Both the position numbers and the translations under genes were made by a program. Of a stretch of 64,000 bases of DNA, positions 55,163-55,201 are shown piece by piece. The DNA is from Squalus acanthias (Eukaryota). The notes below the pieces were generated by a model that did no database searches, was not told where the DNA came from, and saw only the letters and a program-made list of their open reading frames with translations. Numbering within the stretch: the stretch's first letter is position 1; every line of letters begins with the position of its first letter. The DNA is taken from the NCBI GenBank assembly GCA_030390025.1, contig JASTWF010000336.1, forward strand, positions 124,001-188,000, given 5' to 3'.

Positions 55163-55201
55163 TTACAAGCTTTCGAAGCAGTTCGCTCCTTCGTCAGGTA
55201 A
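55163..55201 (-). ncRNA. Minimal type I hammerhead ribozyme motif (3' repeat)
   Basis: Minus strand TTAC-CTGACGA-AGGAGCGAACTGCTTC-GAAAGCTT-GTAA. Confidence 0.85.

Follow-up and report, generated by a model that had tools for sequence, protein, structure and literature searches.

Minimal type I hammerhead motifs in the terminal repeats of Penelope-like elements from a shark histone cluster

In a 64,000-nt stretch of Squalus acanthias DNA (contig JASTWF010000336.1; here called the window), a hammerhead-like motif at 55163-55201 on the minus strand raises two questions: whether its differences from the motif of a sister subfamily reflect selection on a ribozyme fold, and whether copies at the two ends of an element cut free the RNA that is inserted. 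Our preferred reading, which we hold at a probability of roughly 80%, is that these are minimal type I hammerheads in terminal repeats belonging to Penelope-like elements (PLEs), and that they likely cleave slowly after GAAAGCUU when copies are paired through AGCU, probably with the aid of protein. The motifs have the hammerhead core and stems, an extra A and a palindrome, they lie in the pLTRs of an element with reverse transcriptase (RT) and GIY-YIG parts, and their pairing is kept across families. A hammerhead identity is supported.

Motifs and host elements

The motif at 55163-55201 (B55) belongs to the 3' pLTR of a family B element. Read from 55201 down to 55163, it consists of UUAC and the final GUAA, which form a 4-bp stem I (55201-55198/55166-55163); the core CUGACGA (55197-55191); an unpaired A (55190); a 5-bp stem II, GGAGC/GCUUC (55189-55185/55179-55175), around the 5-nt loop GAACU; GAAA (55174-55171); and then GC and UU. 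The palindrome AGCU (55171-55168) takes the place of stem III, and the predicted cut follows a CUU triplet, between 55167 and 55166. An identical hammerhead lies in the 5' partial pLTR (58184-58222, minus strand). The second family B type, B47 (47363-47404, minus strand), has the core CUGAAGA, stem II GGGGC/GCUCC and an 8-nt loop, and is present as an inverted duplicate in the same insertion (49662-49703, plus strand). Family A motifs read GAAACGUU and lie on the minus strand. One (5216-5252, with an ACGU palindrome and a GUU triplet) sits in a GIY-YIG-type fragment, at its 3' end, another (30125-30161) is a short remnant, and the third (20061-20098), which is likely dead, carries the core substitution U4>C. 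Their stem I is AGUU/AACU, or UGUU/AACU in the 30-kb copy, where the outermost helix I pair is unpaired.

The window therefore holds four family B motifs of two sequence types and three family A motifs. Pattern matching returned four family B motifs (including 47367-47400, 49666-49699 and 58188-58218) and two family A motifs (5220-5248 and 30129-30157), with a mean of 0.01 expected (100 shuffles). Rfam hammerhead models gave no match at the gathering score in the window and none at E ≤ 10 in 54800-58500. The core CUGANGA...GAAA...UH is intact in six of the seven motifs (the 20-kb copy being the exception), and every motif has the extra A between A9 and G10.1. An earlier note on this DNA had correctly described the core, stem II and loop of both family B types and the different palindrome and stem I of family A; its fold was incomplete in leaving out this unpaired A.

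Several short strings overlap the motifs. Antisense to the ribozyme core, CAG/GTAAGT (55195-55204, plus strand) equals a consensus 5' splice donor, probably arising incidentally from the letters of the core. Directly after the family A cut, a 3' splice-site-like string (UUAAC, a pyrimidine tract and CAG; 5195-5225, minus strand) has GG for its AG in the 20- and 30-kb copies. Loop 2 of B47 contains the palindrome AUCGAU (47381-47388, minus strand), predicted to permit an extended stem II duplex between copies, a competing dimer.

The surroundings are a vertebrate histone cluster, with six histone 3' stem-loops (3460-40989) and one tRNA-Gly(TCC) (35061-35132), interspersed with RT fragments and a satellite of roughly 45 bp. 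B55 and its partner sit in the 108-nt, 100% identical terminal repeats (pLTRs; 55111-55218 and 58132-58239) that flank the RT/EN ORF of a 3.1-kb family B PLE (55111-58239, minus strand). Its 12-bp target-site duplication (55099-55110 and 58252-58263) is confirmed by an empty-site paralogue of the target at about 53671-53700. The single 2.7-kb ORF (55419-58096, minus strand; frameshift near 57425-57440) encodes an RT domain (PF00078), a CX4CxxC linker (CHGNLCKTC) and a GIY-YIG/CCHH-type C-terminus seen by eye (YLIRCSKGC...WYIG...H...H). The Pfam GIY-YIG model missed this C-terminus and matched a relative (P0022), and NCBIfam gave only sub-threshold RT matches. The closest proteins are from sharks (91% Heptranchias, 84% Scyliorhinus). 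The 47- and 49-kb motifs belong to one insertion event (47277-49753, mixed orientation), which is 5' truncated and partly inverted (inversion near 49241-49246; duplicate 495/505 identical), carries a 34-nt tail (47277-47310) and is flanked by a target-site duplication of 13 bp (47264-47276 and 49753-49765). The partial tandem, inversion, tail and target-site duplications match the PLE hallmarks given in PMC8557442, namely a partial tandem pLTR, inverted truncated copies, an optional tail of 30 to 40 bp and target-site duplications. A CX2-5CxxC linker is there assigned to the Neptune/Nematis type and described as absent in Penelope/Poseidon; by these definitions and on its sequence, family B is an RT plus GIY-YIG PLE of the Neptune/Nematis type. 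Given the frameshift and the 5' truncation, both window copies have probably lost function, and selection would have acted on their source elements.

The closest described ribozymes are the min-HHRs of metazoan PLE pLTRs (PMC4209133). Shared features are the type I core, a helix I of 4 to 5 bp (4 bp here), the unpaired base between 9 and 10.1, a palindromic 15.2-16.2 (AGCU in family B, ACGU in family A, without a monomer helix III), one copy per flanking repeat, inverted pairs, and families with covariation. The G10.1-C11.1 pair is found in both family B types, whereas family A has G-U or A-U. The window motifs differ in a helix II of 5 bp, against 7 to 8 bp in Schistosoma, and in having U as H17. 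PLE small hammerheads studied by Lünse, Weinberg and Breaker, as described in the review PMC6765202, have a similarly short palindromic stem III and cleave as dimers. Animal non-LTR retrozymes (bioRxiv 10.64898/2026.07.22.740005), present in the one chondrichthyan sampled, also carry a type I hammerhead related to those of PLE pLTRs. Retrozymes are non-coding tandem repeats, each with a hammerhead, whereas the window motifs flank a 2.7-kb ORF or stand as solo remnants, and we rejected this identity. In sequence, the motifs show every feature of the PLE min-HHR class; they are a new example of a class described in 2014, ordinary members and not a new kind. They extend the known PLE ribozyme class to shark families and leave knowledge of the class itself unchanged. 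The text and searchable supplement of PMC4209133 (figures aside) report min-HHRs in fish Xena, Poseidon and Neptune elements and do not name shark families; the literature searched, subscription papers and Repbase aside, yielded no shark-specific description of PLE hammerheads.

Predicted cleavage and the inserted RNA

By analogy with published PLE ribozymes, two motifs in a tandem transcript would form a double hammerhead, with stem I cross-paired and a 4-bp stem III, and this structure would process the precursor RNA. PLE hammerhead pairs in tandem transcripts are described as joining via the palindrome and cleaving slowly (PMC4209133; review PMC6765202), and low dimeric activity is described for motifs with the same features (PMC4209133). 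The element protein probably assists slow self-cleavage; the Anolis PLE hammerhead is protein assisted and dispensable for insertion in vitro (PMC11167929). Cleavage is likely incomplete or reversible. The 3.1-kb element continues for 56 nt beyond the 3' cut and begins 52 nt ahead of the 5' cut; the ends of the 47/49-kb insertion lie 90 and about 54 nt beyond the predicted cuts. Since the insertions run past the predicted cuts, the template RNA was intact across the cut sites, either uncleaved or religated. Either a tandem transcript that had not been cleaved or a circle formed by religation would then have been copied, reverse transcription beginning 54 to 90 nt downstream of the cut.

This arrangement resembles that of PAc, an Anolis Poseidon element (Frangieh et al. 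2024, PMC11167929), in which the ribozyme also lies upstream of an internal RT start, the tail is optional and insertions are made from uncleaved RNA. In PAc, RT starts internally at two sites that bracket the tail. The insertion ends in the window are independently consistent with what was seen in vitro, where uncleaved RNA is the template. PAc differs in that its ribozyme overlaps the start codon, whereas the predicted cut of the 58-kb hammerhead precedes the ATG by 92 nt, and in belonging to the Poseidon clade, whereas the window protein has the Neptune/Nematis linker.

Insertions that span the predicted cut sites are also what would be seen if the fold were selected as a protein-binding or RT-positioning structure, or were a vestigial ribozyme, with negligible cleavage in vivo. 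We consider this unlikely, although several observations point its way. The window triplets are CUU and GUU and not GUC/GUA, the triplets of fast natural hammerheads (PMC3138052). The hammerhead fold of B55 is not the predicted minimum (-7.0 versus -9.5 kcal/mol; stem II pair probability of 0.10), and in the predicted monomer an alternative hairpin is favored and the core is sequestered. For all four motifs examined, the double hammerhead lies 9 to 24 kcal/mol above the cofold minimum, in energies that omit tertiary contacts. In Anolis, catalytic mutants of the ribozyme still insert in vitro, and no RNA-seq reads ending at the cut site were found (PMC11167929); PMC4209133 itself leaves such functions open. 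What argues for catalysis is that related PLE motifs cleave as dimers (PMC4209133, PMC6765202) and that the letters of the catalytic core have been retained, as would be expected of a catalytic RNA. This conservation includes a covariant U3-A8 core in hammerheads of three related loci from metagenome contigs (L003:562 and 3986, L007:2253, and L032:2922); the L003 motifs form a 3,424-nt tandem unit. B47 (predicted good fold) and B55 (predicted misfold), with their compatible dimer interfaces, offer a ready test pair for the role of PLE hammerheads.

The earlier note had suggested that the copies at the two ends could undergo dimeric cleavage, freeing a unit-length RNA; in the version weighed here, that RNA is linear and would serve as template. 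The 3.1-kb element does carry identical motifs at both ends, with compatible stem I and palindrome, but the proposal conflicts with the insertion ends: at both insertions the DNA extends 52 to 90 nt past the predicted cuts, leaving intact ribozyme halves on either side of the cut. These ends fit only a circularized version that was copied through more than a single round, and we regard a linear template as very improbable.

Selection on the fold

Next, we consider whether the differences between B55 and B47 reveal selection. Because the 47/49-kb motifs come from one insertion and the 55/58-kb motifs mark opposite ends of one element, the four copies provide just one pairwise comparison. The motifs are identical at 34/39 positions. 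Among the 34 non-loop positions there are three differences: N7 and two stem II changes. As the earlier note claimed, all non-loop changes fall at N7 or at pair-preserving sites; both stem II changes are one-sided, and none is compensatory. That three of three non-loop substitutions are tolerated has a P of about 0.02 under a transition-weighted model, applied post hoc, in which about 27% of substitutions are tolerated (0.005 unweighted). The probability of no disruptive change depends on the assumed rate: taking that of the upstream block gives 0.0004, that of the proximal UTR 0.04 and that of ORF fourfold sites 0.47. The subfamilies differ at 7 of 234 fourfold sites, and ORF identity is 96.8% (1531/1582; 93 to 100% along the ORF). 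Selection on the fold, which the earlier note had drawn from this comparison, is supported, mostly by the other evidence given below; as proof, the comparison was overstated.

Four of 23 listed sequencing runs were compared with the window; X12 and X19 may be RNA, and X21, the one raw RNA run among the four, gave 0 reads. The arms GGAGC and GCUCC both appear in the loose ends of runs X12 and X19; on the simplest account, either subfamily lies a single wobble change from a perfect stem. B55 and B47 likely each derive from a GGAGC/GCUCC stem by one such change. Within 55165-55200, no alternative letter reached 4% in X1, X12 or X19; as diverged subfamilies are lost from this count as loose ends, we did not weigh it as evidence.

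Pairing across families is more informative for the fold. In the five distinct window motifs, 44/45 cells are paired and 7/9 pairs have changes on both sides, these changes separating family A from family B or occurring inside family A; the cells are not independent events. Covariation was 0.93, compared with 0.47 for shuffled motifs and at most 0.29 for slid registers, which pair in at most 49%. A 20-motif alignment that included metagenome motifs was left out of the covariation count because those motifs had been picked by structure. Covariation and compensatory changes within genomes have already been argued for min-HHRs (Cervera & De la Peña 2014, PMC4209133).

We also scanned 77 related loci, fetched from metagenome contigs with a profile of the element's C-terminal region, for the structure. 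There were 23 sense matches (in 21 loci) and 1 antisense match, compared with 1 match in ten shuffle rounds, in a set that includes near duplicates and has at least 500 nt after the protein match in only 49/77 loci. L038 ends in the same GAAAGCUU. In loci L019, L025, L027, L033 to L045 and L050, a CCGG-loop hammerhead without the extra nucleotide lies about 0.5 to 2.4 kb past the protein match; L034 has two motifs 100 nt apart.

Run X19, from another organism, has depth over the ribozyme and the downstream segment and none over 55212-55419. In this run, 55164 is changed from T to C in 99.6% of the depth. A partner change at 55200 was read from the loose-end consensus, at its 19th letter (10 contigs; agreement of 0.71; median length of 17). 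The two changes are probably a compensatory swap in stem I, from U-A to C-G. Cross-family pairing, strand asymmetry and the X19 swap together support selection on the hammerhead fold. Least probable of all is that the conservation stems from recent shared ancestry or from overlapping signals (the antisense splice donor; AAUAAA plus a GU-rich tract) and not from a ribozyme. In its favor, such strings are present, and the fourfold rate of 7/234 would leave zero disruptive changes with the P of 0.47 given above. It is largely refuted by the 23:1 strand asymmetry and is opposed by loop 2 and the upstream UTR being fully rewritten between subfamilies and by family A and invertebrate relatives keeping the fold with unrelated stems and flanks. 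In addition, among the 18 related motif sites that we checked, AAUAAA follows none and ATTAAA one.

The diverged 3' UTR and the conserved downstream segment

Strong divergence of the adjacent 3' UTR, as described in the earlier note, holds upstream of the ribozyme, where a subfamily-specific block (55202-55296, minus strand) has 65/95 aligned positions in common, plus gaps; it does not hold downstream, where 40 of 42 nt are identical. Between subfamilies, 3' UTR identity is 62 to 69% with gaps counted and recovers right after the cut site. Divergence in the 3' UTR (55202-55418 versus 47405-47644) is about tenfold that at ORF fourfold sites. This excess suggests either that a pLTR cassette was swapped or that the UTR evolves very fast, between which one copy pair cannot distinguish. 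In a more specific version, which we find doubtful, shark Neptune-type elements would swap a cassette of 3' UTR plus ribozyme, with heterodimeric hammerhead cleavage and religation shuffling pLTR modules at the RNA level. Its basis is that ORF fourfold sites are 3% different and the 3' UTR and ribozyme loops about 30%, with near-identity returning a few bases from the cut. Heterodimeric hammerheads would be possible because neither the AGCU palindrome nor the UUAC/GUAA stem I differs between the subfamilies.

The segment just downstream of the cut (55111-55162 and 58097-58187, minus strand) is highly conserved, and is more conserved and more widely shared, among subfamilies and organisms, than the ribozyme. 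It contains AAUAAA (55157-55152) followed by a GU-rich tract. A predicted hairpin of 8 to 9 bp, GUUGGACU/AGUCCAAC, has one arm in this segment, closes in the tail and encloses the common insertion end. Depth in X1 over the segment was several-fold above that of the ORF bins and about 35-fold above that of the stem II bin; given this excess, the segment appears to be common to many subfamilies. As a DNA pattern it had 0 matches in viral contigs and 0 in metagenome contigs. The only two downstream differences between the subfamilies are at 55161-55162, where the prediction places an internal loop in an extended stem I. Their changing together with loop 2 may represent tertiary covariation between loop 1 and loop 2.
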